DNA from: an uncultured Alphaproteobacteria bacterium
Lineage (GTDB): Bacteria; Pseudomonadota; Alphaproteobacteria; RF32; CAG-239
Reading direction: 5' to 3'
Length of the DNA: 64,000 nucleotides
Assembly: GCA_944391445.1 (NCBI GenBank)
Contig: CALXTL010000006.1
Coordinates: 21,123-85,122, forward strand
Shown: piece after piece, positions 2,027 to 60,853 of the stretch
Layout of the letters: the number at the start of each line of letters is the position of its first letter
Numbering within the stretch: the first letter of the stretch is position 1
The notes under the pieces: model-generated
The model's input: only the letters and a program-made list of their open reading frames with translations
Databases searched by the model: none
Told to the model about the DNA's origin: nothing
Made by a program: the position numbers and the translations under genes

Positions 2027-3613
2027 TCAATGATTTTCGATCGTTTTGGAGAATTTAACTTTAGGAAAATCTTCTTGAGCTTTATTCAAATGCCAGGCGT
2101 TGCGGGCTAAAAACACCGGCGCGCCGTCATTATCTTCGGCCAAATTGGCCTGATTGGCGTCAGAGAATTTTTTCCATTCGTTTTTGTCGTCGCAGCTGAC
2201 CCAGCGTGCGGTGAAATATTGTGTCTGTTCAAACATGACGGGCAGGTTGAATTCATTTTTAATTCGGTCTGCCATCACTTCAAATTGCAATGCGCCGACC
2301 ACGCCGACAATCCACTCGGCGCCGATCATCGGTTTAAACACACTGGCGCCGCCTTCTTCGGCAATTTGTCTCAGCGCATCTCCCAGATGTTTAGATTTGA
2401 GCGGATCCAGCGCCCGGGCAGATTTAAGCAATTCAGGCGCAAAAGACGGAATGCCAGTAAAGTTAAATTTTTCTCCTTCGGTAAGAGTATCGCCGATTCG
2501 GAGTTGCCCATGGTTAGGAATACCGATAATATCACCGGCAAAAGCATCTTCCGCTAGTTCGCGCTCCTGAGCCAGAAACATAACCGGTGTCGGCACTTTA
2601 AGCTCTTTTCCGGTGCGCACTTGCAACAGTTTCATGCCGCGTTTGAAGTGCCCGGAGCAAAGGCGCATAAAAGCAATGCGGTCGCGGTGTTTGGGATCCA
2701 TATTAGCTTGGATTTTAAAAACAAAACCACTGACTTTAGGCTCATCGGCCAAAACCATACGTTCCTTAGCCGGATGCGGGCGCGGCGCCGGAGCAATCTG
2801 ATGCAGACCGTTGAGAATTTCACGCACGCCGAAGTTATTAATGGCGCTGCCAAAAAAGACCGGCGTCATGGATCCTTCCAAATAAGCTTCAAGATCAAAA
2901 GGCGGGCAAAGTTCTTTAATCATTTCCACATCTTCGCGCAGTTTGGCCGCCAGATAGGCAGGCAACAAACGGTCAATCTTATCATCGTCCAAGCCGCGGC
3001 AGGTTTCAATAGTGTCATTGATCTGCGATTTGTTTCCGGTTTTATTCATTAGAATCAGCTGATCATTAATCAGATCATAGCAACCGGCAAAATCCTTGCC
3101 CATTCCGATTGGCCAGCTGGCCGGAGTTGCCTCCAGAGCCAATGTCTTTTCAATTTCGTCCAGCAGCGCGAAAGGATCTTGTCCTTCCCGATCCAACTTG
3201 TTAATAAAAGTCAGGATCGGCACATCACGCAGCCGGCAAACTTCAAACAGCTTTTTAGTTTGCGTTTCAATACCTTTGGCGGCGTCAAGCACCATTACGG
3301 CGGAATCAACCGCGGTCAAAACCCGGTAAGTATCTTCCGAAAAATCTTCGTGTCCCGGTGTGTCCAACAGATTAAAAGTGATTCCGCGGTAATCAAAAGT
3401 CATAACAGAAGAGGCAACGGAAATTCCGCGCTCTTGTTCGACTTTCATCCAGTCGGAATGTGCCCGGCGGTTTTCGCCGCGAGCTTTGACGGCACCTGCC
3501 TGTTGAATGGCTCCGCCAAACAGCAGCAGCTTTTCGGTCAGGGTTGTCTTACCGGCATCCGGATGGGAAATAATTGCAAATGTTTTACGTGGATTTGGTT
3601 TATTCTCAGGCAT
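2027..3613 (-). CDS. prfC: peptide chain release factor 3 (GTPase)
   Basis: 528 aa with the GTPase motifs 'SHPDAGKTT', 'DTPGHEDF' and 'NKLD'. Overall layout is RF3-like. Confidence 0.95.
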   Translation of the reverse strand: MPENKPNPRKTFAIISHPDAGKTTLTEKLLLFGGAIQQAGAVKARGENRRAHSDWMKVEQERGISVASSVMTFDYRGITFNLLDTPGHEDFSEDTYRVLTAVDSAVMVLDAAKGIETQTKKLFEVCRLRDVPILTFINKLDREGQDPFALLDEIEKTLALEATPASWPIGMGKDFAGCYDLINDQLILMNKTGNKSQINDTIETCRGLDDDKIDRLLPAYLAAKLREDVEMIKELCPPFDLEAYLEGSMTPVFFGSAINNFGVREILNGLHQIAPAPRPHPAKERMVLADEPKVSGFVFKIQANMDPKHRDRIAFMRLCSGHFKRGMKLLQVRTGKELKVPTPVMFLAQERELAEDAFAGDIIGIPNHGQLRIGDTLTEGEKFNFTGIPSFAPELLKSARALDPLKSKHLGDALRQIAEEGGASVFKPMIGAEWIVGVVGALQFEVMADRIKNEFNLPVMFEQTQYFTARWVSCDDKNEWKKFSDANQANLAEDNDGAPVFLARNAWHLNKAQEDFPKVKFSKTIENH

Positions 3614-3698
3614 ATTGACAGTCTTTACAAGTTACATACAAAATTGCCTCCTTAATAAAACAAATTTTAAGGAGGCACAAGAGTTTTTTATAAGCGCG

Positions 3699-5063
3699 TC
3701 AGAAAGGCGAAGAGACGTTAGGTGTTCCGCTTTGAACCTGAGCCGGTGTGAGAGTCTCTGTTTTGGAAATCAGAGCCACGGCCTCGTTTCCTTTGGTGAC
3801 CGTATTAATTTTTGGGGTTACCGGGATAGGAACTTCCTCAACGGTTGTTTTAACTTCCGTCACGTTTGCCTGAACATTATCCGCAACCGGCGCATTTTGC
3901 TTTGCCTGAGCGGAAACCGCCGACACGTCGGAAGCAGCAGCCGGAGCCGCGGCCTTTTTAACGTCGCGTTTGATACCAAGATACCGCTCAATTGCTTTCT
4001 TTTCCGCAGCTTTTTCCGAAGCGGTGATCAGGTTCAGATCATATAATACTTCCAATTTGCGCAAATCTTTGGCCGCGCCCAGAATATCTCTGGCCGGCGC
4101 TTTAGGCTTCATTCTTGTGCGTGGCGACGGCGGCAAAAGTGCTTCAATAATCACATCACGTTCGGCGGAAAATTCACGCGGGGTAATGGCGCGGGACTCT
4201 ACGCCGTCTTTCAAAACATTAATACGCTCCACAATCAATTCCGGTGCCGGAACGGGCTGGTCAATTCCTTTCGCCGGCGGCATGTTGGTCAGGGGAAGCA
4301 ATCCGCCGAGGTTAGACATGCGGCGGGTCAAAAACTCTTCTTTGGTGATATAGTCTTTTTCGGCAAGCTCTTTCAGTACCAGAAAACGCGAGATGATATT
4401 CTGCTCCTGTTGTGAGAACAAATTGTCAATGGCTGGGGCTTTTTTTGCGACCGGCGCAGGCTTTTCCTTCAAGGCGCGTTTAATGGTGGCTGTGCTCTGA
4501 GCATTGCCGGCAGCCGGAGAAATATTGAAGTTCATTTGTCCGTTCGGAGTCTCAACAACCAGTTCACTTTGTTTAATGGTCAGACTGCGCAGCCGCGTCT
4601 TGGCAATATCGGCAAAACTCTGCGGTTTGCCGGTGGAACTGCCGAGAATGGAAGTGTCGGCACTGTCAATGATGATCAAATCTTCATAGTTCTGCCGGGC
4701 ACGGTTGAGCCGGCCGAGCTGTTCGGCAGCCAGAGCGCCGACCAGCAGCCCTTGTTGGTTGCGCGGGTTTGCTTTAAGAGAGTCCATGGAAAGTTCGAGT
4801 GCTTTTTTGAAATTCCCCTGCGAATAAGCCATGGTGGCGTCGGCCGCTTCCTGATTGCCGTCTTTTTCAAATTGGCGCACCAGCCAGTTAGATTCTTCAT
4901 CGGTGTTTTTCTTATCCAAAATGGCACATCCCGTAAGCAGGGCAAAAGTGGCGGTTGGCAGCAGGATTGTTTTGAAAATGCGGGGGCAGAACACTGCGTT
5001 ACTCCTCAAAATGATAAACGGTTTCAGCGGCTTTTGCAGGTATATTATAAAAGTTTGCGTCAT
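3699..5063 (-). CDS. lipoprotein with a TPR-like N-domain and three short 'IT..E(F/K)' repeats, function unknown
   Basis: 454-aa ORF with the lipobox 'LLTGC'. It has an Ala/Pro-rich linker and a repeated ITKEEFLTRR / ITPREFSAER / ITASEKAAEK motif. The start codon is uncertain. Confidence 0.6.
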   Translation of the reverse strand: MTQTFIIYLQKPLKPFIILRSNAVFCPRIFKTILLPTATFALLTGCAILDKKNTDEESNWLVRQFEKDGNQEAADATMAYSQGNFKKALELSMDSLKANPRNQQGLLVGALAAEQLGRLNRARQNYEDLIIIDSADTSILGSSTGKPQSFADIAKTRLRSLTIKQSELVVETPNGQMNFNISPAAGNAQSTATIKRALKEKPAPVAKKAPAIDNLFSQQEQNIISRFLVLKELAEKDYITKEEFLTRRMSNLGGLLPLTNMPPAKGIDQPVPAPELIVERINVLKDGVESRAITPREFSAERDVIIEALLPPSPRTRMKPKAPARDILGAAKDLRKLEVLYDLNLITASEKAAEKKAIERYLGIKRDVKKAAAPAAASDVSAVSAQAKQNAPVADNVQANVTEVKTTVEEVPIPVTPKINTVTKGNEAVALISKTETLTPAQVQSGTPNVSSPF

Positions 5064-30639: not shown

Positions 30640-31254
30640 ATGGCCAAAGAAATAAAATTGCTGAAAAAGGAAAAAACGCCAAAATTATCTGGCAGCCGCA
30701 CCAAAGGCATCAAACCTGCCGAAACCAAAAAATTGTCGCTCAGCAAGACACGTGCCAAAAAAATCAAACACGCCTATCAGGTAAAAGATGCCGAAAATGC
30801 CTTGCTTTTAAAGTTAAAAGACGGCGATGTTGTTATTGAGATGTTTCCCGACGCGGCGCCCAATCATGTAGAGCGAATCAAGGAGCTTGTCAGAGCCGAA
30901 TTCTACAACGGGCTGAAATTTCACCGGGTGATTGAAGGATTTATGGCTCAGACCGGCTGTCCTTATGGAACCGGCACCGGAGGCACCGGCAAAAAGCTCA
31001 AAGCGGAGTTTAATTCCCTGCCGCACAAGCGCGGTACGGTTTCCATGGCCCGCGCGATGGACATTAACTCCGCCGACAGTCAGTTTTTCATATGTTTCGG
31101 AGATTGCAGCTGGCTGGATGGACAATATACTGTCTGGGGGCAGGTAACTTCGGGGATGGAATATGTTGATGCCATCAAAAAGGGTTCAGGTGCCAATGGA
31201 GAGGTTTCTGATCCGGATACCATCATCAGCATGCAGGTGATTGCCGACATCTGA
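30640..31254 (+). CDS. cyclophilin-type peptidyl-prolyl isomerase with Lys-rich N-terminal extension
   Basis: Core 'FHRVIEGFMAQTG...GTGG...FFI' preceded by about 50 aa rich in K/S/T. Confidence 0.85.
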   Translation: MAKEIKLLKKEKTPKLSGSRTKGIKPAETKKLSLSKTRAKKIKHAYQVKDAENALLLKLKDGDVVIEMFPDAAPNHVERIKELVRAEFYNGLKFHRVIEGFMAQTGCPYGTGTGGTGKKLKAEFNSLPHKRGTVSMARAMDINSADSQFFICFGDCSWLDGQYTVWGQVTSGMEYVDAIKKGSGANGEVSDPDTIISMQVIADI

Positions 31255-31270
31255 AAAACAAGTTTCAAAA

Positions 31271-31304
31271 AAGAAGGCCGGTTGTCAAAGTCCGGCCTTC
31301 TTTC
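31271..31304 (+). terminator. terminator after the PPIase gene
   Basis: Stem GAAGGCCGG / CCGGCCTTC followed by TTTCT. Confidence 0.7.
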
Positions 31305-31324
31305 TATATAAAGTTTAATACAGA

Positions 31325-31341
31325 GAGCATTTCACTAAATA
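31325..31341 (+). repeat. 17-bp direct repeat copy 1 (GAGCATTTCACTAAATA)
   Basis: Identical to 31665-31681. Confidence 0.9.
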
Positions 31342-31428
31342 CTCAAATACAAATAAAACAAACTTTTCAAATAGTCAACCAAAAACAGCAAATAAAAGAA
31401 CAAAATATGAACACACAGGGAAATGTTC

Positions 31429-31457
31429 TTGACATAATTTGAATAAGGTATTAGCTT
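31429..31457 (+). promoter_or_regulatory. candidate promoter TTGACA-17-TAGCTT
   Basis: Perfect -35 at 31429-31434. The -10 is weak (T1, A2 and T6 conserved). Confidence 0.3.
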
Positions 31458-31519
31458 AAAAAATCGGCAAAGGATTGCCGTGTACCTGCGACAGGTAGGG
31501 AGCCTTGACAAGCTCTTAA

Positions 31520-31534
31520 ATTTAGTGCGGTGCT
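31520..31534 (-). repeat. partial inverted copy of the 17-bp repeat (12/15: AGCA-ccg-CACTAAAT)
   Basis: The + strand reads ATTTAGTGcggTGCT, the reverse complement of the AGCATTTCACTAAAT core with 3 central mismatches. Confidence 0.55.
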
Positions 31535-31664
31535 AGGATATGGCGTCGATAATTAATATCGGGTTATTTAAAAGGACGATATTAATAATATATCCCCGAC
31601 AGTATCAAAAGGTCGGGGAGCCCGTGGTGTATGTTCAGAAGTTTTAGCTTTAAAGACCAGTGGG

Positions 31665-31681
31665 GAGCATTTCACTAAATA
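31665..31681 (+). repeat. 17-bp direct repeat copy 2 (GAGCATTTCACTAAATA)
   Basis: Identical to 31325-31341. Here it is part of the AGCAT...ATGCT hairpin. Confidence 0.9.
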
Positions 31682-31700
31682 TGCTTTGTCAACTCTCCGA

Positions 31701-31726
31701 CCACCTCAATGCAGGTGGTTTTTTGT
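31701..31726 (+). terminator. intrinsic terminator
   Basis: CCACCT-caatgc-AGGTGG followed by TTTTTTG. There is no upstream A-run, so it works on the + strand only. Confidence 0.7.
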
Positions 31727-31839
31727 ATTATATCAGCAAAAACGGGGAGCTACGTGACGGCGCATAAGTCGAAATCTTGTTGTGGATTAACAATGAAACA
31801 TAAGAAAAGTTGCCCGTTTGCATACCGGAGACAGGTAAG

Positions 31840-32427
31840 ATGATTTGCGCCTATGTGCAAGACTCTGCTCTGGGAGAAGATGATGCTTCTTTGGCCTGCC
31901 AGTACCAATCCATACAGTTATTTACGCGTGAAAACAATCTTACAGTTGATGTCTGGCATCGGGGTATTGATACGGAAGAGACACTTGTACGGTTGCACGC
32001 CGGCGACACATTGTTGGTCTGCCGGTTCAGCAGTCTTGGCGTATCGCTGAAAAAAGTTTGGCGTTCACTATCTGTCTGTTGGAATAAAAATATTAAAATC
32101 ATTGTGATTCAGAATAAAAATATTTTTGAAAAAAACAGTGAAATGCATCAGTTGTTGGAAGCGATGGAATTGGTTGTCAAAATCGAAACGGACATCAGAT
32201 CGCAGTCCGTCCGTCGCCGGCTGCAGCAGAGGCGCAGGGAAGGGAAAGTTCTCGGGCGCCCTTTTGGCAGTCGTAATCGAAAAACTAAACTGAGCGGACG
32301 TGAAGAAGAGATAACCTCACTTTTGGCACAAAAAGTTTCCAAAAGCGCCATTGCCAAACGCCTGGGCGTTAACCGGATGACCTTATACGGGCATCTGCGT
32401 CGGATGGAAGAACAAAAAGCCGCCTGA
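31840..32427 (+). CDS. serine-recombinase-like protein with degenerate catalytic motifs and intact C-terminal HTH
   Basis: Paralogue of the 60248-60853 product (shared ...REN..(V/I)D.W..., GD.L, LGR.FGS.N.K..L.G.E.EI..LLAQ.VSK..IA...GV...T.Y..L.R). It reads AYVQDSA for YIRVST and FSSLGV for SRLGR. ATG 31840 follows a GGAG SD. Confidence 0.7.
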   Translation: MICAYVQDSALGEDDASLACQYQSIQLFTRENNLTVDVWHRGIDTEETLVRLHAGDTLLVCRFSSLGVSLKKVWRSLSVCWNKNIKIIVIQNKNIFEKNSEMHQLLEAMELVVKIETDIRSQSVRRRLQQRRREGKVLGRPFGSRNRKTKLSGREEEITSLLAQKVSKSAIAKRLGVNRMTLYGHLRRMEEQKAA

Positions 32428-32436
32428 AAAGGCGGC
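32413..32436 (-). terminator. sodB terminator embedded in the 3' end of the recombinase-like CDS
   Basis: GCCGCC-tgaaaa-GGCGGC, with a T-run on the minus strand. Confidence 0.6.
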
Positions 32437-32444
32437 ATCGGTCA

Positions 32445-33023
32445 TTATTCGGCAACCTGTGGCCAATTGGCCAGATGTTCCAAAAAGTTTTCAATATGGT
32501 CTGCGCGCCGGTTTTGATAATCCAGGTAATAAGCGTGTTCCCAAACATCAATAGTCAGCAACGGTATAATCCCGTGGGCAACAGGTGTATCGGCATTACT
32601 GGTTTTCATAATTTTGATGGTATCATTTTCTTCATAAACCCAGGCCCAGCCACTGCCGAATTGGCTGACGGCAGCATCTTTGAGCTGTTTTTTGAATTCG
32701 TCGTAAGAACCGTATTGCCGGGTAATTTTATCCAGCAGTTTGCCTTTCGGCGCACCGCCCAAAGGCGACATTGACCGCCATAAAAATTCATGATTCCAAA
32801 CTTGTCCGGCATTGTTGAAAATGGCTTGTTGTGTCGGTTTGCCGGAGGTTTCTCGGATAATTTTTTCAAGGGGCATATCCGCATATTCCGTACCTTCAAT
32901 CAGTTTGTTCAGCGTATTGACATAATTGGGATAGTGCTTGCCGTAATGAAAAGAAAGCGTCCGCTCGGAAACATAAGGTTCAAGAGCATTCATATCATAG
33001 GGCAGTTCCTTGATTTCAAACAT
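32445..33023 (-). CDS. sodB: Fe/Mn superoxide dismutase
   Basis: 192 aa with 'LPYDMNALEP', 'FHYGKHY' and 'DVWEHAYYLDYQNRR' signatures. Confidence 0.9.
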   Translation of the reverse strand: MFEIKELPYDMNALEPYVSERTLSFHYGKHYPNYVNTLNKLIEGTEYADMPLEKIIRETSGKPTQQAIFNNAGQVWNHEFLWRSMSPLGGAPKGKLLDKITRQYGSYDEFKKQLKDAAVSQFGSGWAWVYEENDTIKIMKTSNADTPVAHGIIPLLTIDVWEHAYYLDYQNRRADHIENFLEHLANWPQVAE

Positions 33024-56350: not shown

Positions 56351-57360
56351 ATGATTCCTTTTTTACGAAGTTTATAAGCCGCCCAGTCATATATTTTTTT
56401 AATCAGACGGTATTTGAGCTTTTTTAATTGCGGATGCAATATCAGATTAATTTCTTTTTTGTGATTTAAGCAAATTGTTAAGACATCAAAAAATTTTTCA
56501 CGGGCTTCCAAACAGAAGCTTTGATTTTCTTTAGCCTGATTCAAACAGGAAAGACAATGACAAATTTCTTTCCAGGCTTTGCCAATAAAAAATTGATGAT
56601 ACCTGCCGTCAAAATAGCGGTCATAATCTATAAAACACCGAGCTTGAATTGCCGCTTTTTCAAAATCGTTCAATCCCGTCCATATGCCGCCGGACAACAA
56701 ACGGTAAACACCGCTGCTTTCATTGACAAAATGTGCTTTGCCGCTGTGCAAATGCATGATGAATCTGTCGGCGTCTCCTTCAAAAGATCTTTCAGCATCA
56801 GTGCCGACAGCGTGTTGCACAATGTCGGGAATGCCATTGCGGTAGATCGTATTTCTGAACACCATTCCGGTTGTTTGTGAAAAGAAAATCTTGTCATGTA
56901 AAAAATCATCAAAAGTAAAATCGGCCGTTTTCAGTTTTGTCTGCACATAAAGGCGCGAACTTCCGTTTTCACGGAGCGTCGTCACGTTGGTATAATAAAT
57001 ACTGAAATCCTTGTTTTTCTCCAAAAAGTCCACAGCTTTTTGCAAATAAGCGTCGTCTGTCCAATAGTCATCGGCATCAAGTAACGTAAAATAAGGCGTT
57101 TTTGTTTGCGCTTTGGCCCGCAGAATATTTTGGAGATAGCGGCCGTTTTCTTTATTTTCTAAAACACGGATAATGTTTGGATATTTTTGTGCATAAGCGC
57201 GGATAATCTCAAGGCTGTTGTCTTTCAAAGAGTGGTCATCGGTAATGAGCAGGCAAAACGGAAAAGACGTCCTTTGCGCCAGAACGGATTCGATAGCCTG
57301 TCCGACATACCGGGCCTGATTATAATTGGACATAATCACTGTCAGTTTGGGGTGTCGCAT
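56347..57360 (-). CDS. family 2 glycosyltransferase
   Basis: '[24 protein letters not shown]' and 'LLDADDYW'. Its stop overlaps the next start (ATGA). Confidence 0.75.
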
Positions 57361-58745
57361 TGTTTGTCTCTTTTGGTATATTTTATTTTGATAATTCCGA
57401 ACAGGACCAAAGTCCTGCGGCGGCCGTTTTTGATTTTTGCGAAAAGTTTAAATTTTCTTCGCCCAAAGTGTTTTTTGCCGCGGCGAAAGGCAGCAATGAG
57501 TTTGCGATCATCTCTGTCCTTAGGGATTTCATTTCTTTTTTTCTTCATCTCATCCAAAATATCCAGGCGGATGAATTTGATGCCGTGCCAATAAAAATGC
57601 CGTCGTGGATCATAAATAATTTCAGTTTTGCTGCAGGGATAGTAGACGAGTTCAGTTTCATGAGAGGAAAGATCATTGCTTTGCGGTGTAAACGGCATAT
57701 TTCCGGCATAGAGAAAATCCAAATCGCTGCTTTGCCGCAGACCGAGCAGGTTAAGCGGCGTGCTACCAACGCAGCAGATATCGTTAAGATCAACATTTTG
57801 TTCGTTGGCTTCTTTTCTGAGCTGCTCAGTCATGACGTCAAATTTTTTATCTTCAAAGTCGAAGGGGCAAAAATTCAGCAAATGAAGAGAATCCTCATTA
57901 AAATAAGTCTCTGCCAGCCAAAGAGCTTCTTCCCGCGTGTCATTGATGTGCACACTGTAGTTTCCCAAGGCCAATAATTCTCTGATTTCTGCTTTGGCCT
58001 GCACGGCTTTTTCTAGACTGTCGCACACAAAGACATAGGCTCGGAGCGGCCGGCGTCCCATCGATTTTCGGGCGTGAGCCTGCGCACCGGCAAAATGGTT
58101 TTCCGTCGAACCGATCCAGGGTTCTCTTTCCCAGAATGAGCCGTAAGAAAGCTTTTTCAAATTGACATAACCGTTAAAAGTCAGATGAACATCTTTTTGA
58201 TAAAAAATAAAACCGTATTTTTCAAGAATTTGTTCGACTTGTCTGTCTTTGGCTTGGTCTGCAACAGCATGCAGATTGACGATATAGGCGTAGGGATTAA
58301 GCCTGACATATTCCAGAGCGGCATAATCGGCAAACAGAGGGTTAAGTCCTTTGTCGCGGAAAAATTTATAATCATATAAATCGTGTCGGCCGTCCGGAGT
58401 AAGTGCCACATCCAGGCCGAGAACGGCAGCACAGGCAAGGCGGTGAGCGCCGTCGCTGATCTCTCCGTTGTCGCCGATCGGGATCAGACCTTTGCTTTTG
58501 TCAAAACCATGAGTCTGCATATTGGCAAACAAACATTCAAAAGCGCGAATAAAATCTTCGGGTGAATTTTTGGGATGCCCGTCGCTCGGCTCCTGCTCAA
58601 AAAAATGATTAAATGCCCGAATATGCTCAAGATACATCTCCCGGAAAAAAGGGAGATTCTTATCTTTATACCGCAAATAAAGATATTTAAAAATCAAATC
58701 AAACCGTTTGGAGCAAAGCAGTAGGCTTAAAGCGTTTGTTTGCAT
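57342..58745 (-). CDS. hypothetical protein with an N-terminal ParB/sulfiredoxin-like motif and a C-terminal Pol-beta-type nucleotidyltransferase-like motif
   Basis: 'PIGDNGEISDGAHRLACAA' is a DGxHR-type motif. 'CCVGSTPLNLLGLRQSSDLDFLY' is GS-x9-11-DxD-like. The C-terminal tail is basic. Confidence 0.45.
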   Translation of the reverse strand: MQTNALSLLLCSKRFDLIFKYLYLRYKDKNLPFFREMYLEHIRAFNHFFEQEPSDGHPKNSPEDFIRAFECLFANMQTHGFDKSKGLIPIGDNGEISDGAHRLACAAVLGLDVALTPDGRHDLYDYKFFRDKGLNPLFADYAALEYVRLNPYAYIVNLHAVADQAKDRQVEQILEKYGFIFYQKDVHLTFNGYVNLKKLSYGSFWEREPWIGSTENHFAGAQAHARKSMGRRPLRAYVFVCDSLEKAVQAKAEIRELLALGNYSVHINDTREEALWLAETYFNEDSLHLLNFCPFDFEDKKFDVMTEQLRKEANEQNVDLNDICCVGSTPLNLLGLRQSSDLDFLYAGNMPFTPQSNDLSSHETELVYYPCSKTEIIYDPRRHFYWHGIKFIRLDILDEMKKKRNEIPKDRDDRKLIAAFRRGKKHFGRRKFKLFAKIKNGRRRTLVLFGIIKIKYTKRDKQCDTPN

Positions 58746-58747
58746 TT

Positions 58748-59683
58748 TTATAACTCCAGACGGTAAAAATTATAAGCAACGCTGCGGGCGCCGAAACTTT
58801 CTTTCTGGGCACACAGACCGGTATTGAACACAGTACCGTTTTGCTCGGTAGAGATACCGAAATCAAACCATTTCTTTTTCCCCTGAAAATAATCAATCAA
58901 GTGCTTGATCAAAAGATCCAGACCGCCGATTTGTCTGGCAGTTTCGTTAGCAGCCAGATATTGCGTATGCACGCAGTTTGAGTATATAAAAACAAGGGCG
59001 CCGGCAATCATTTGTCCGCCATGCATTGCCGTCCATAAACGAATATTTTCCGGAAAGCGGGATTTCAGTAATACCAGCTCGGCAGCCGTATGTACGGCTT
59101 TGGTTTGATGATGCTGCCACAAAACCTGATTTTCCAGCCGGATAAAATTTTCAAAATCTTCCGATTCCGCAACAGAAACATTTTCCCGCCGGGCACGGGC
59201 AATTTGTGCTTTTCGGCCTTTAGACATTTTTTGCGGATTTTCCAGATCAATAACTGAAGCAACATCGCTTCGCCATAAATTGGCGCCGTGTTGCAGCAAT
59301 GGCCATAAATATTCTTCCGCCGGAATAAGATGATAAATATAAGGAACGCTTTTATAAATAAATTCATGGATTTTGCGGTCGTGCAGATAAGTTATCAAAG
59401 CGTCGACACAATCGTTAATATGATGTTGTTTGGTTTCCGGCGCAGTGAAAAAGCCGCCGTAAGTCAGCCCGCCGTGCGAGCAGAGGACGCCGTCTTGTAC
59501 CGAGGCCGGCAGCAAAGCAACCAGTTTGTCATCGTCATAAAACAATAGTGAAAAATCAGTAAAACGGTCGGCATGATATTCCATAAAATTGCGATGGAAC
59601 ATAAACATCGGTGATTTTGAACGATCAATAAAATCATCCCATATGTCATGAAATTCCTGGGTATATTGAAAAATTCTAATCAT
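58748..59683 (-). CDS. FemAB/GNAT-like acyl- or aminoacyl-transferase
   Basis: True start is MIRIFQYTQEF at 59683 (ATGATTAG overlap with the fdtA-like stop). The longer track ORF is an out-of-frame overlap of the upstream gene. 'KGRKAQIARARR' is FemAB-like. Confidence 0.4.
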   Translation of the reverse strand: MIRIFQYTQEFHDIWDDFIDRSKSPMFMFHRNFMEYHADRFTDFSLLFYDDDKLVALLPASVQDGVLCSHGGLTYGGFFTAPETKQHHINDCVDALITYLHDRKIHEFIYKSVPYIYHLIPAEEYLWPLLQHGANLWRSDVASVIDLENPQKMSKGRKAQIARARRENVSVAESEDFENFIRLENQVLWQHHQTKAVHTAAELVLLKSRFPENIRLWTAMHGGQMIAGALVFIYSNCVHTQYLAANETARQIGGLDLLIKHLIDYFQGKKKWFDFGISTEQNGTVFNTGLCAQKESFGARSVAYNFYRLEL

Positions 59684-60101
59684 GAGCAACCTCATGCAAA
59701 AAAAGAGCGTAGTCCCGGATATAGTCTGCTTCATCATAATGTTCGGAAGCCAACACCATGAGAACGCAATCTGCAGAAAAATGAGTAAATTCCCGCCAAA
59801 TATTATGCCGAAGATAAAGTCCTTGCGCCGGATTGTCAAGATGCACAACTGTGCGCCGGCAGCCGTCATCCAGAACAAAATCACAGCTGCCGGCCAGGCA
59901 GAGGATAACCTGTTCAAGCTGGCGGTGGGCATGTTTTCCGCGGATGGCATCATAAGATGTTCCCCAAATGTAATAAACCCGCTTAACGGCAAAGGGGAAA
60001 TCCGCTCCTGCTTCCAAAGCGACCAGATTTCCCCTGAGATCACCGTGTATTTTGAAGTCAAGTAATTGATACATTGAGCCCGTACCATAAGGTTGATGCA
60101 T
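59676..60101 (-). CDS. WxcM/FdtA-like cupin (dTDP-4-keto-6-deoxyhexose 3,4-ketoisomerase type)
   Basis: 'DLRGNLVALE...PFAVKRVYYIWGT...RGKHAHRQLEQVILCLAGS'. Possible starts are TTG 60107, ATG 60101 and ATG 60074. Confidence 0.7.
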   Translation of the reverse strand: MHQPYGTGSMYQLLDFKIHGDLRGNLVALEAGADFPFAVKRVYYIWGTSYDAIRGKHAHRQLEQVILCLAGSCDFVLDDGCRRTVVHLDNPAQGLYLRHNIWREFTHFSADCVLMVLASEHYDEADYIRDYALFLHEVAHD

Positions 60102-60121
60102 GTTCAAAACAGCCCGAATTA

Positions 60122-60136
60122 ACGGACGTTAGATTT
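60122..60136 (+). repeat. IR-L of the invertible cassette (ACGGACGTTAGATTT)
   Basis: Perfect reverse complement of 60234-60248. Confidence 0.9.
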
Positions 60137-60203
60137 CCGAGTTATAATGCAAAGTCTGAAAAAAAGCGAAACCGAAGAAACAAGCGCGGCAGAGAAATTT
60201 TTA

Positions 60204-60232
60204 TTGCAAACAAAATTAAACTAAAGTATAAG
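60204..60232 (+). promoter_or_regulatory. sigma70-type promoter TTGCAA-17-TATAAG inside the cassette
   Basis: Hexamers at 60204-09 and 60227-32 with a 17-nt spacer. The -10 ends 1 nt before IR-R. Confidence 0.55.
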
Positions 60233-60233
60233 A

Positions 60234-60248
60234 AAATCTAACGTCCGT
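60234..60248 (+). repeat. IR-R of the invertible cassette (AAATCTAACGTCCGT)
   Basis: Perfect reverse complement of 60122-60136. Its last base is part of the recombinase stop codon. Confidence 0.9.
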
Positions 60249-60853
60249 CAGATTTTCCGATCTTTTGCCCGGGACAGGAAGTTATAAATTGTTTTCGTGC
60301 TGACCCCGACAGATTCAGCGATTCGCGTTTTAGAAACTCCCTGAGCCAGAAGTTGAAATATTTCATTTTCTTTACCGTCCAAAACATGTTTTTTGTTTTT
60401 ACTGCCGAAAGCGCGGCCGAGCTTGTGCCCGCAGGATTTAAGACGCAGCAGGGATTCTCTGGTTCTCTGGCTGATGAGGTCTCGTTCAATTTCCGCGGCC
60501 AGCCCGAAGGCAAAAGCCAGAACCTTGCTTTGCAAATCGGCTCCGAGTTTATAATTGTCTTTAATTGTCCGTACCTGAACATTTTTCTGCATGCAAATGT
60601 TTAATATAGACATAATCTGAAATAAATTGCGCCCCAGCCTGGAAATCTCCGAAGCAATCAGAATATCGCCGGATTTCAGCCGTCGCAGCAAGACGCCCAA
60701 ACGCCGTTCTTCAAAACTTTTGCTGCCGCTGACGGTTTCCCGGATCCAGCAGTCAATCAAAAAATTTTCCCGTTGGCAAAAATTGATGATTTCAAATTCC
60801 TGATTATCAAGATTCTGTTTCCCTGTACTCACTCTGATATAGCCGTATATCAT
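60248..60853 (-). CDS. small serine recombinase / DNA invertase (Hin/Mpi-like)
   Basis: 'MIYGYIRVSTGKQ' (nucleophile Ser), 'SGDILIASEISRLGRN', 'EIERDLISQRT' and the C-terminal HTH 'GVSKTRIAESVGVSTKTIYNFL'. Strong AAAGGAGGAG SD. Confidence 0.85.
   Translation of the reverse strand: MIYGYIRVSTGKQNLDNQEFEIINFCQRENFLIDCWIRETVSGSKSFEERRLGVLLRRLKSGDILIASEISRLGRNLFQIMSILNICMQKNVQVRTIKDNYKLGADLQSKVLAFAFGLAAEIERDLISQRTRESLLRLKSCGHKLGRAFGSKNKKHVLDGKENEIFQLLAQGVSKTRIAESVGVSTKTIYNFLSRAKDRKI

Follow-up and report, generated by a model that had tools for sequence, protein, structure and literature searches.

Transcriptional riboswitches, for example those of the c-di-GMP classes, lie upstream of adhesin, polysaccharide and regulator genes, and antitermination leaders are known from the EAR RNA of Bacillus eps operons, the HK022 put RNA, RfaH/ops-JUMPStart and UpxY of Bacteroides; Mpi-type invertible promoters of Bacteroides capsule loci were reportedly described by Coyne et al. 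in 2003 (cited in PMC7641763). In Bartonella, the Brt1-9 RNAs lie upstream of XRE-family trp genes, and a role in trans has been proposed for Brt1 (PMC5387305). The locus considered here is a spacer in a 64-kb stretch of DNA from an uncultured gut alphaproteobacterium, called the window, whose numbering is used throughout; the spacer separates a cyclophilin gene from the gene of a 195-aa resolvase-like protein. As read from its signals, it is one transcription unit, consisting of a sigma-70 promoter, a structured RNA of about 265 nt and an intrinsic terminator, and the RNA is, on its fold and conservation, a real member of a previously uncatalogued structured-RNA family. With a probability of roughly 0.6 it is a cis-acting conditional-termination leader, found ahead of surface-sugar, adhesin, regulator and mobile-element genes. 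The unit and its edges are as follows.

30640-31254: cyclophilin (PPIase) gene, matching Pfam Pro_isomerase.
31270-31310, plus strand: terminator hairpin of the upstream cyclophilin gene (inverted repeat 31270-81/31292-303), the left edge of the unit.
31429-31457, plus strand: sigma-70-type promoter, with the -35 hexamer TTGACA at 31429-34, a 17-nt spacer and the -10 hexamer TAGCTT at 31452-57.
31464-31728, plus strand: structured RNA including its terminator; the covariance model matches 31460-31730 with 279 bits.
31699-31726, plus strand: intrinsic terminator GACCACCU/AGGUGGUU with a U-run, its stem sequence almost invariant across the RNA family.
31727-31839, plus strand: species-specific spacer from the terminator to the next gene, with a fourth GGGGAGC (31744) and a P2-like repeat (31823-37) over the ribosome-binding site (RBS).

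The two promoter hexamers are invariant in three close species, with a variable spacer between them, and a comparable promoter lies at an equal distance from the 5' end of the model in all seven lineages in which the RNA occurs; transcription is predicted to start near 31464. The first-pass annotation of this DNA had pointed to the TTGACA hexamer, to an intrinsic terminator (the stem occupies 31699-31720 and the T-run extends to 31725) and to the lack of any open reading frame (ORF) of at least 60 aa inside the region, and all three observations hold. A leader peptide was considered and rejected, the 37-codon ORF from 31541 not being conserved in the close homologue L015. For the stretch between terminator and next gene (31727-31839), no homology to relatives was found. 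The RNA itself is under strong constraint: among eleven sequences of the species (the window and ten assemblies) its 200-nt core contains no segregating site, whereas genes have about 11 per kb and the spacer on either flank 18-19 per kb; between species the core is 83-93% identical, against 37-39% in a neighbouring stretch of the spacer.

The RNA folds into two 5' hairpins, P1 and P2, followed by a five-branch domain that is closed by the long helix P3; there are ten helices in total, and the terminator stacks directly on P3. Numbers of pairs with compensatory changes refer to the seven lineages.

31465-70/31475-80, plus strand: P1, compensatory in 4 of 6 pairs.
31483-88/31492-97, plus strand: P2, compensatory in 3 of 6 pairs.
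31499-31527, plus strand: 5' strand of the closing helix, with the P3 base GGAG (31499-502), P3a UUGACAAGC (31505-13) and P3b AUUUAGUG (31520-27).
31528-31548, plus strand: P4, a hairpin whose loop GGAUAU is conserved in the family (GG.UAU invariant in all seven lineages).
31549-31589, plus strand: P5, a sequence-variable hairpin with arms 31549-61/31577-89, compensatory in 10 of 11 pairs.
31593-31619, plus strand: P6, a hairpin UCCCCGAC/GUCGGGGA flanked by invariant UAUAU and AGC.
31621-31664, plus strand: P7 and P7b, compensatory in 5 of 8 and 4 of 6 pairs, with the invariant internal loop AUGU.CAG.A ... AA.AG.
31665-31698, plus strand: second copy of a 17-bp direct repeat (31665-81), then the 3' strands of P3a and of the P3 base (CUCC, 31695-98).

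The consensus fold, obtained with RNAalifold, is carried by compensatory change at every depth of sampling: the three close lineages have 98.5% of cells paired and 7 compensatory pairs, five sequences show compensatory change in 25 of 82 pairs, and all seven lineages, in a check on covariation of the kind that the first-pass annotation had proposed, show it in 43 of 82 with 96.1% of cells paired, with the caveat that the seven-sequence alignment was fitted to the covariance model, which inflates pairing; the folds of single sequences agree independently. Shuffled controls give 22.4 ± 2.9 compensatory pairs, none reaching the observed value, and slid alignments give 7-12; about 29 G-U cells assign the fold to the plus strand. 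Compensatory change is seen in 5 of 9 pairs of P3a and 8 of 9 of P3b, and in P4 a C-G pair of the window is replaced by U-A in L015; P5 has a different sequence in every lineage, the hairpin being retained. Other parts vary hardly at all: UAUAUCCCC and CGGGGAGC of P6 are invariant in the seven lineages, and the terminator stem has compensatory change in 0 of 8 pairs, CUCUCCG.CC.CCU and GGUGGU being invariant. The minimum free energy (MFE) of the RNA is -87.5 to -90.5 kcal/mol (z -3.8), and homologues fold singly into the same architecture, with z of -5.6 and -6.0.

Scanning the spacer against Rfam, likewise proposed at the outset, yields no family: Rfam 15 has no match in 31255-31840 at E-values up to 10 with permissive filters, none on the RNA in four divergent homologues (L164-L167), and in the whole window only a tRNA. 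A transcript of about 270 nt from an unfamiliar structured-RNA family, one of the two readings that the first-pass annotation offered, is thus well supported by the conserved promoter, the covariation in seven lineages, the terminator and the lack of an Rfam match.

Homologues occur in six other lineages, all from gut metagenomes. Those of close species are L015 (GCA_017480995.1) and L036 (with L138-140); a covariance model of the close species scores the divergent copies L165 (140 bits), L164 (117.8), L167 (110) and L166 (91), with E-values of 1e-29 to 1e-45, L164 having been found by BLASTN of a phage collection, in a scaffold named "UNVERIFIED Bacteriophage sp.", and the other three by further searches. 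In GenBank, L164 (MT835859.1), L166 (MT835708.1) and L167 (MT837206.1) are all entered as "UNVERIFIED: Bacteriophage sp." scaffolds from human faeces, but they look like bacterial or mobile-element DNA rather than phage. The L164 scaffold carries SecB, a Tim44-like gene and Fe-hydrogenase, as well as, by sequence, MltA- and Smr-like ORFs, and is a bacterial contig; L167 encodes a PLD nuclease and a large serine recombinase. Searches elsewhere gave nothing: neither nhmmer nor the covariance model finds a second copy in the 64-kb window, ARAGORN finds no tmRNA, two pattern scans of JGI metagenomes have zero matches, the plasmid collection has none, the RNA is absent beside the PPIase orthologues of six further species, and a literature search for its conserved strings returned nothing relevant. 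A match in the viral contig L150 was rejected as a chance match to the terminator.

What follows the RNA bears most directly on its function. The following distances to the next gene run from the terminator's last GGUGG up to the start codon.

L167, 19 nt: PLD-like nuclease.
L015, 25 nt: glycosyltransferase operon (capsule-type glycosyltransferase).
L036, 37 nt: DegT aminotransferase operon.
L165, 42 nt: autotransporter.
L166, 71 nt: XRE HTH regulator (HTH_3).
L164, 79 nt: XRE HTH regulator (HTH_3).
Window, 121 nt: resolvase-like HTH gene.

In all seven lineages, the RNA is co-oriented with the next gene and lies directly 5' of it. The gaps of 19-42 nt in four of them leave too little room for a promoter, so that expression of the downstream genes must cross the terminator, and the RNA is therefore taken to be a conditional-termination leader; it has the marks of one in its same-strand 5' position (19-79 nt in six homologues, 121 nt in the window) and its covarying, sensor-like domain. 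Transcription of the downstream gene would then be conditional on read-through of the RNA's own terminator, triggered either by a ligand, as in riboswitches, or by a factor or a modification of RNA polymerase, as in processive antitermination, and the terminated product may persist as a stable RNA, like that of Bartonella Brt/Trp. As a separate observation, the motif CGGAGA recurs in the RBS regions of three unrelated downstream genes (L015 4589-4600; L036, minus strand, about 2260-2275; window 31825-31831) and has its complement in the invariant UCUCCG where P3 meets the terminator; pairing of the two motifs could possibly add a translational layer in read-through transcripts.

Several points besides the inflated pairing weigh against such a leader. 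No convincing antiterminator was found in the RNA: the sole conserved alternative helix, GGUCGGGGAG (31609-18) with CUCUCCGACC (31692-701), is about 28 kcal/mol worse than the MFE, lacks covariation and has one pair broken in L166, and was rejected as an antiterminator for its poor energy and missing covariation. A long read-in transcript that refolds was rejected as well, its MFE still forming P3 and the terminator. The predicted domain and terminator are structurally independent, which would fit a stand-alone small RNA (sRNA) equally well; the promoter, the 5' end and termination are all deduced from sequence; and the RNA is still constrained in the window species although no biosynthetic genes follow it there, so that its role may not be purely in cis. 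The lack of a credible antiterminator, together with the unusually invariant terminator stem, suggests read-through that depends on a factor or on the polymerase; alternatively, by analogy with Brt, the main product could be the stable RNA, with read-through a minor output.

In a rival account, the RNA is a stand-alone trans-acting sRNA or a protein-binding structured RNA, and its gene-proximal position and occasional read-through are secondary. In favour of this, the RNA has a promoter to itself, ends in a strong terminator with which no alternative structure competes, and is intact and free of polymorphism in the window species, where the operon is absent; yet the genes of four lineages start 19-42 nt past the terminator and must depend on read-through, and each of the seven copies immediately precedes a gene on its own strand. 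Invariance extends to many unpaired nucleotides and to the sequence of some helices (P6 and the terminator), as expected for a protein or tertiary interface, but there is no evident single-stranded seed region. Brt provides a precedent, as an abundant RNA with a barely transcribed downstream gene (PMC5387305). On balance we consider a purely stand-alone RNA unlikely, though not strongly so. A more far-reaching version of the conditional-termination leader can be put forward tentatively and stays well short of even odds: the RNA may represent a new signal-responsive antitermination class, whether a riboswitch for a lifestyle signal, for instance a nucleotide second messenger, or a polymerase-reprogramming RNA like put or EAR. 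In uncultured gut Alphaproteobacteria, and in the mobile elements of these bacteria, it would serve as a portable "leader cassette" that gates surface glycans, adhesins, XRE regulators and genes of mobile elements. Parts of the switch would then be the terminator hairpin, which is invariant, and the GGGGAGC/CUCUCC segments, which are repeated.

The first-pass annotation had singled out the spacer for its repeats, most of which are as it described them. The 17-mer GAGCATTTCACTAAATA is present in exact copies at 31325-41 and 31665-81, offset by 340 bp, and a partial inverted copy, complementary in 12 of 15 positions, lies at 31520-34; the hairpins CGGCAA/TTGCCG, ACCTG/CAGGT and CCCCGAC/GTCGGGG were all found in the sequence. 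The four GGGAGC motifs, said to include two fused to the 17-mer, are all present (31498, 31616, 31663 and 31745), but only one GGGGAGC (31662-68) is so fused, the upstream 17-mer copy being preceded by AGA and not GGG; the two strands of the 64-kb window together have only ten such motifs, as against about 23 in shuffled sequence, so that the four found here form a local cluster far above chance. The two AT-rich palindromes (31547-61 and 31578-94) also exist, but together they are the arms of the single hairpin P5, of which relatives conserve the hairpin alone and not the sequence.

The inverted copy lies in the 5' strand of P3 (31499-31527), and most of the second 17-mer in its 3' strand (31673-31698), where it provides a junction segment and the 3' strand of P3b. 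Because 8 of the 9 pairs of P3b show compensatory change, these two copies are the two strands of an RNA helix, and two of the three mismatches that the inverted repeat has in DNA become G-U pairs in RNA. A second direct repeat, identical in 13 of 15 positions, was seen at 31483-31497 (TACCTGCGACAGGTA) and 31823-31837 (TACCGGAGACAGGTA), with the same offset of 340 bp as the 17-mer; its second copy overlaps the RBS of the resolvase-like gene. Tandem duplication of a 340-bp unit was rejected, since only two short blocks match and the remainder of the units is unrelated.

The annotation had also allowed for the repeats being copies of a common genome-wide REP-like element, and chance matches are the other possibility of this kind. 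Beyond the AT-rich composition nothing points that way, and the idea has next to no standing: the 17-mer has only its two matches in the 64-kb window, even at up to 3 mismatches, and the only other locus with two 15-mer copies, about 350 bp apart and accompanied by the RNA, is the orthologous L036. In a 596-Gb collection of genomes, the 15-mer core has 119 matches, one of them real (L036) and 118 due to chance; the latter are isolated matches from unrelated phyla, except for one pair at a distance of 84 bp, and the loci that were re-screened, other than L036, carry no RNA, as chance would predict for 596 Gb.

That leaves the first 17-mer, which lies outside the RNA, and the gene downstream of it.

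31322-31386, no strand assigned: conserved upstream block, at about -142 to -78, with 17-mer copy 1 (31325-31341) and TTTTCAAATAGTCAACC.
31840-32427, plus strand: decayed gene of an Mpi-family serine invertase, 195 aa, its helix-turn-helix (HTH) kept and its catalytic arginines lost.

The upstream block is 83-86% identical to L015 and L036, against 37-39% in the adjacent 31387-31425, and in all three close species its copy equals the downstream 17-mer in 17 of 17 positions. No significant upstream repeat is present in L164, L165 or L166 (L167 was not examined), an apparent one in L164 not being significant, so that the repeat was rejected as a family-wide feature; it is a clade-specific conserved DNA or RNA element under constraint. 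It may serve as an operator, for which the HTH that the decayed invertase has kept is a candidate binder, or as a decoy partner of the P3b 5' strand in read-in transcripts, in which the two are computed to pair co-transcriptionally, not at equilibrium; it could also be a remnant maintained for another reason.

If the 17-mers were operators for a DNA-binding protein such as the decayed invertase, they would loop the promoter from about -130 and +200, an arrangement compatible with the RNA. The strong conservation of the upstream block beside a diverged stretch is as expected for this, and so is the identity of the two copies in three species, closer than that of either to the complement of the inverted copy; but the constraint on copy 2 is accounted for by the RNA alone, and the upstream copy is not shared by the family as a whole. 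Between the 340-bp and the 350-bp spacing the difference is about one helical turn; in the decayed invertase, conservation between species is about 70% for the HTH half and about 25% for the catalytic half, and its gene is the last in the L015/L011 operon. The 17-mer has only weak dyad symmetry, however, and does not resemble Mpi-type half-sites. We rate operators as quite unlikely.

The neighbouring recombinase gene had been called degenerate, correctly so: its product reaches only 100 bits with NCBIfam NF009949, the Mpi master-invertase family, whose cut-off is 272, and Pfam recognizes in it only the C-terminal part of Resolvase and HTH_7. In the alignment, the equivalent of R8 (YIRVS motif) is changed from R to Q and SRLGR to SSLGV, and there is a 10-aa deletion; the orthologue P0002 has lost the serine too. 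A search of genome contigs found no relatives of this recombinase-like protein.

In the annotation's other reading, the repeats are sites of a serine recombinase, active or relic; they would enclose an invertible (31341-31520 or 31535-31664) or an excisable segment (31342-31681). The adjoining gene does derive from an Mpi-family invertase, and the same genome has an active Mpi inverton, but the neighbouring protein is without its catalytic arginines in both species that have it, and the repeat is unlike both the 26-bp Mpi site GAAAATCTRACG-GA-CGTYAGATTTTC (60231-60258) and the site beside another Mpi-family protein, P0003; the 17-mer was rejected as an Mpi-type site, the similarity being weak. 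The promoter lies between the first 17-mer and the inverted copy, whose distance of 179 bp is typical of Bacteroides promoters flanked by inverted repeats, but this inverted repeat matches in only 12 of 15 positions, its inverted copy forms an RNA helix with the second 17-mer (8 of 9 pairs compensatory), and the upstream repeat is not significant in L164, L165 or L166. Inversion and 340-bp deletion variants, which the annotation had proposed to look for, are seen in none of the eleven sequences of the species and in neither of two sister species, these being assemblies and not reads, so that the power is limited; the spacer, measured in 9 of the sequences of the species, is 586 nt long, and the RNA is in register in all. 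The lack of variants and a 12/15 repeat unrelated to the Mpi site make active recombination at the RNA locus unlikely. In view of the RNA helix, the dead recombinase, the lack of variants and the dissimilar site, the reading is largely unsupported: it is wrong for the inverted and the second direct copy, applies at most to the upstream one, and as a whole is highly improbable.

The surroundings of the RNA vary between species. Near-identical contigs are found in many ENA and Logan gut assemblies and in the metagenome-assembled genome GCA_949288205.1. In the window, the resolvase-like gene is followed by a convergent sodB and then by fliJ, fliI and the gene of a response regulator (Response_reg and Trans_reg_C domains) whose sequence reads as CtrA-like. 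In the closest species without the element (L012 4094-4157), sodB follows the cyclophilin gene after 62 bp, and the spacer and resolvase-like gene of the window thus represent an extra segment of 1.17 kb. In L015, the cyclophilin gene is followed by the homologous RNA region and a four-gene glycan operon (capsule-type glycosyltransferase, LicD, IspD, SDR). The end of L015 and the start of L011 share 99.4% identity, which puts the orthologue of the resolvase-like gene last in this operon, beside sodB; in the third species (L036, L138-140), the RNA region precedes a DegT/WbqC/GT56 operon. The biosynthetic genes were either lost in the window species or gained in its sister species. The cyclophilin-sodB junction (window 31254-32445) is thereby seen to hold 62 bp, the RNA with the decayed invertase, or the RNA with a glycan operon of four or more genes; it is the operon of L015/L011 that ends with the decayed invertase, the L036 locus not being covered to its far end. 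In more distant relatives the cyclophilin gene is followed by another neighbour, SIMPL.

About 29 kb from the RNA, the window holds the inverton mentioned above.

60248-60853, minus strand: intact Mpi-family serine invertase gene (NF009949, 284.7 bits, above the cut-off).
60122-60136 and 60234-60248: perfect 15-bp inverted repeats enclosing a promoter-bearing segment of 97 bp.
57342-60107, minus strand: FdtA/GNAT glycan genes, downstream of the inverton.

The 97-bp segment carries TTGCAA-N17-TATAAG, a promoter that points away from the FdtA/GNAT operon and is thus OFF in the window; a 26-bp dyad site, GAAAATCTGACG-GA-CGTTAGATTTTC, includes the repeat that adjoins the invertase gene. One of the ten assemblies (L155, ERZ16268164 scaffold_9203) has the segment inverted, with 96 of 97 matches, between identical flanks, and the other nine match the orientation of the window; 60122-60853 is an active Mpi-type inverton in a gut alphaproteobacterium. 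What resembles another one was noticed in L162 (JGI 3300027864, 3600-3960) beside P0003, where 12-bp inverted repeats GCAAAAAAAACG/CGTTTTTTTTGC, 115 bp apart, surround TTGACA-N17-TATCAT; a nearby CGTTAGATTTT motif is identical to part of the window's Mpi site, and invertase gene and inverton together lie between the two copies (about 2806 and about 3926) of a longer inverted repeat, ATAAGAGAAGATGCCTCACG.

Large, highly conserved bacterial RNAs of complex fold that belong to no family are uncommon, and several have proved to be new classes of riboswitch or ribonucleoprotein. The present one is tractable, with about 265 nt, a clear covarying fold and a terminator as direct read-out, and it precedes genes that, in gut Alphaproteobacteria about which little is known, shape the cell surface and the mobile elements. 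It also guards against an easy mistake: repeats beside a recombinase gene resemble recombination sites, yet two of the three copies form one RNA helix; the Mpi-type inverton of the same window, found in a proteobacterium and in both orientations in public assemblies, is an internal control showing what an active inverton looks like in these data. The structured-RNA interpretation of the first-pass annotation is right, and a role as leader or attenuator is plausible.

Among known systems, Mpi-type invertible promoters share with this locus a relative of the Mpi-family recombinase beside a glycan locus and repeats that flank a promoter, and the window has a genuine example at 60122-60248; here, however, the repeat partners are strands of an RNA helix, the recombinase is catalytically dead, flipped variants were not seen and the repeat sequence is unrelated to the Mpi site. 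Transcriptional riboswitches resemble the RNA in having a conserved multi-helix domain with invariant junction and loop nucleotides, followed by a terminator and an ORF, and in preceding genes that are heterogeneous yet all related to surface or lifestyle. They differ from it in that no mutually exclusive antiterminator was identified here, no Rfam riboswitch model matches, and the terminator sequence is invariant, which would be unusual for an expression platform.

Processive antitermination, as in LoaP with the hairpin and terminator of its dfn leader, also involves a 5' leader with an RNA element and an intrinsic terminator before long operons (PMC12691694). Such leaders precede glycan, secondary-metabolite, adhesin or mobile-element operons, and the gene set found here, of polysaccharide, autotransporter and mobile-element genes, is like that of an RfaH-type regulon; unlike these systems, no NusG paralogue was seen in the flanks examined, and both the LoaP hairpin and put are far smaller and simpler than the present RNA. 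As to EAR, whose model is presumably among the Rfam families scanned, the scans of the window and the homologues gave no relevant match.

The closest described arrangement is that of Brt/Trp in Bartonella. The Brt RNAs are reported to be restricted to Bartonella, with nine copies per genome, as compared with one copy in 64 kb here (PMC5387305), and the present RNA is longer, at about 265 nt, and stands ahead of many gene types and not of XRE genes alone; the HTH protein downstream in the window is of a different family. In both cases, however, a structured alphaproteobacterial RNA (about 200 nt in Brt) has a terminator-like structure at its 3' end (PMC5387305), and an HTH regulator gene that lacks its own promoter follows within tens of nucleotides, as in L164 and L166, where the RNA and its terminator lie immediately 5' of an XRE HTH gene. 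Both have a link to the cell surface, through the adhesin BadA in Bartonella and through the autotransporter and glycan operons here, and for Brt a dual role as cis-acting terminator and stable RNA has been proposed (PMC5387305).

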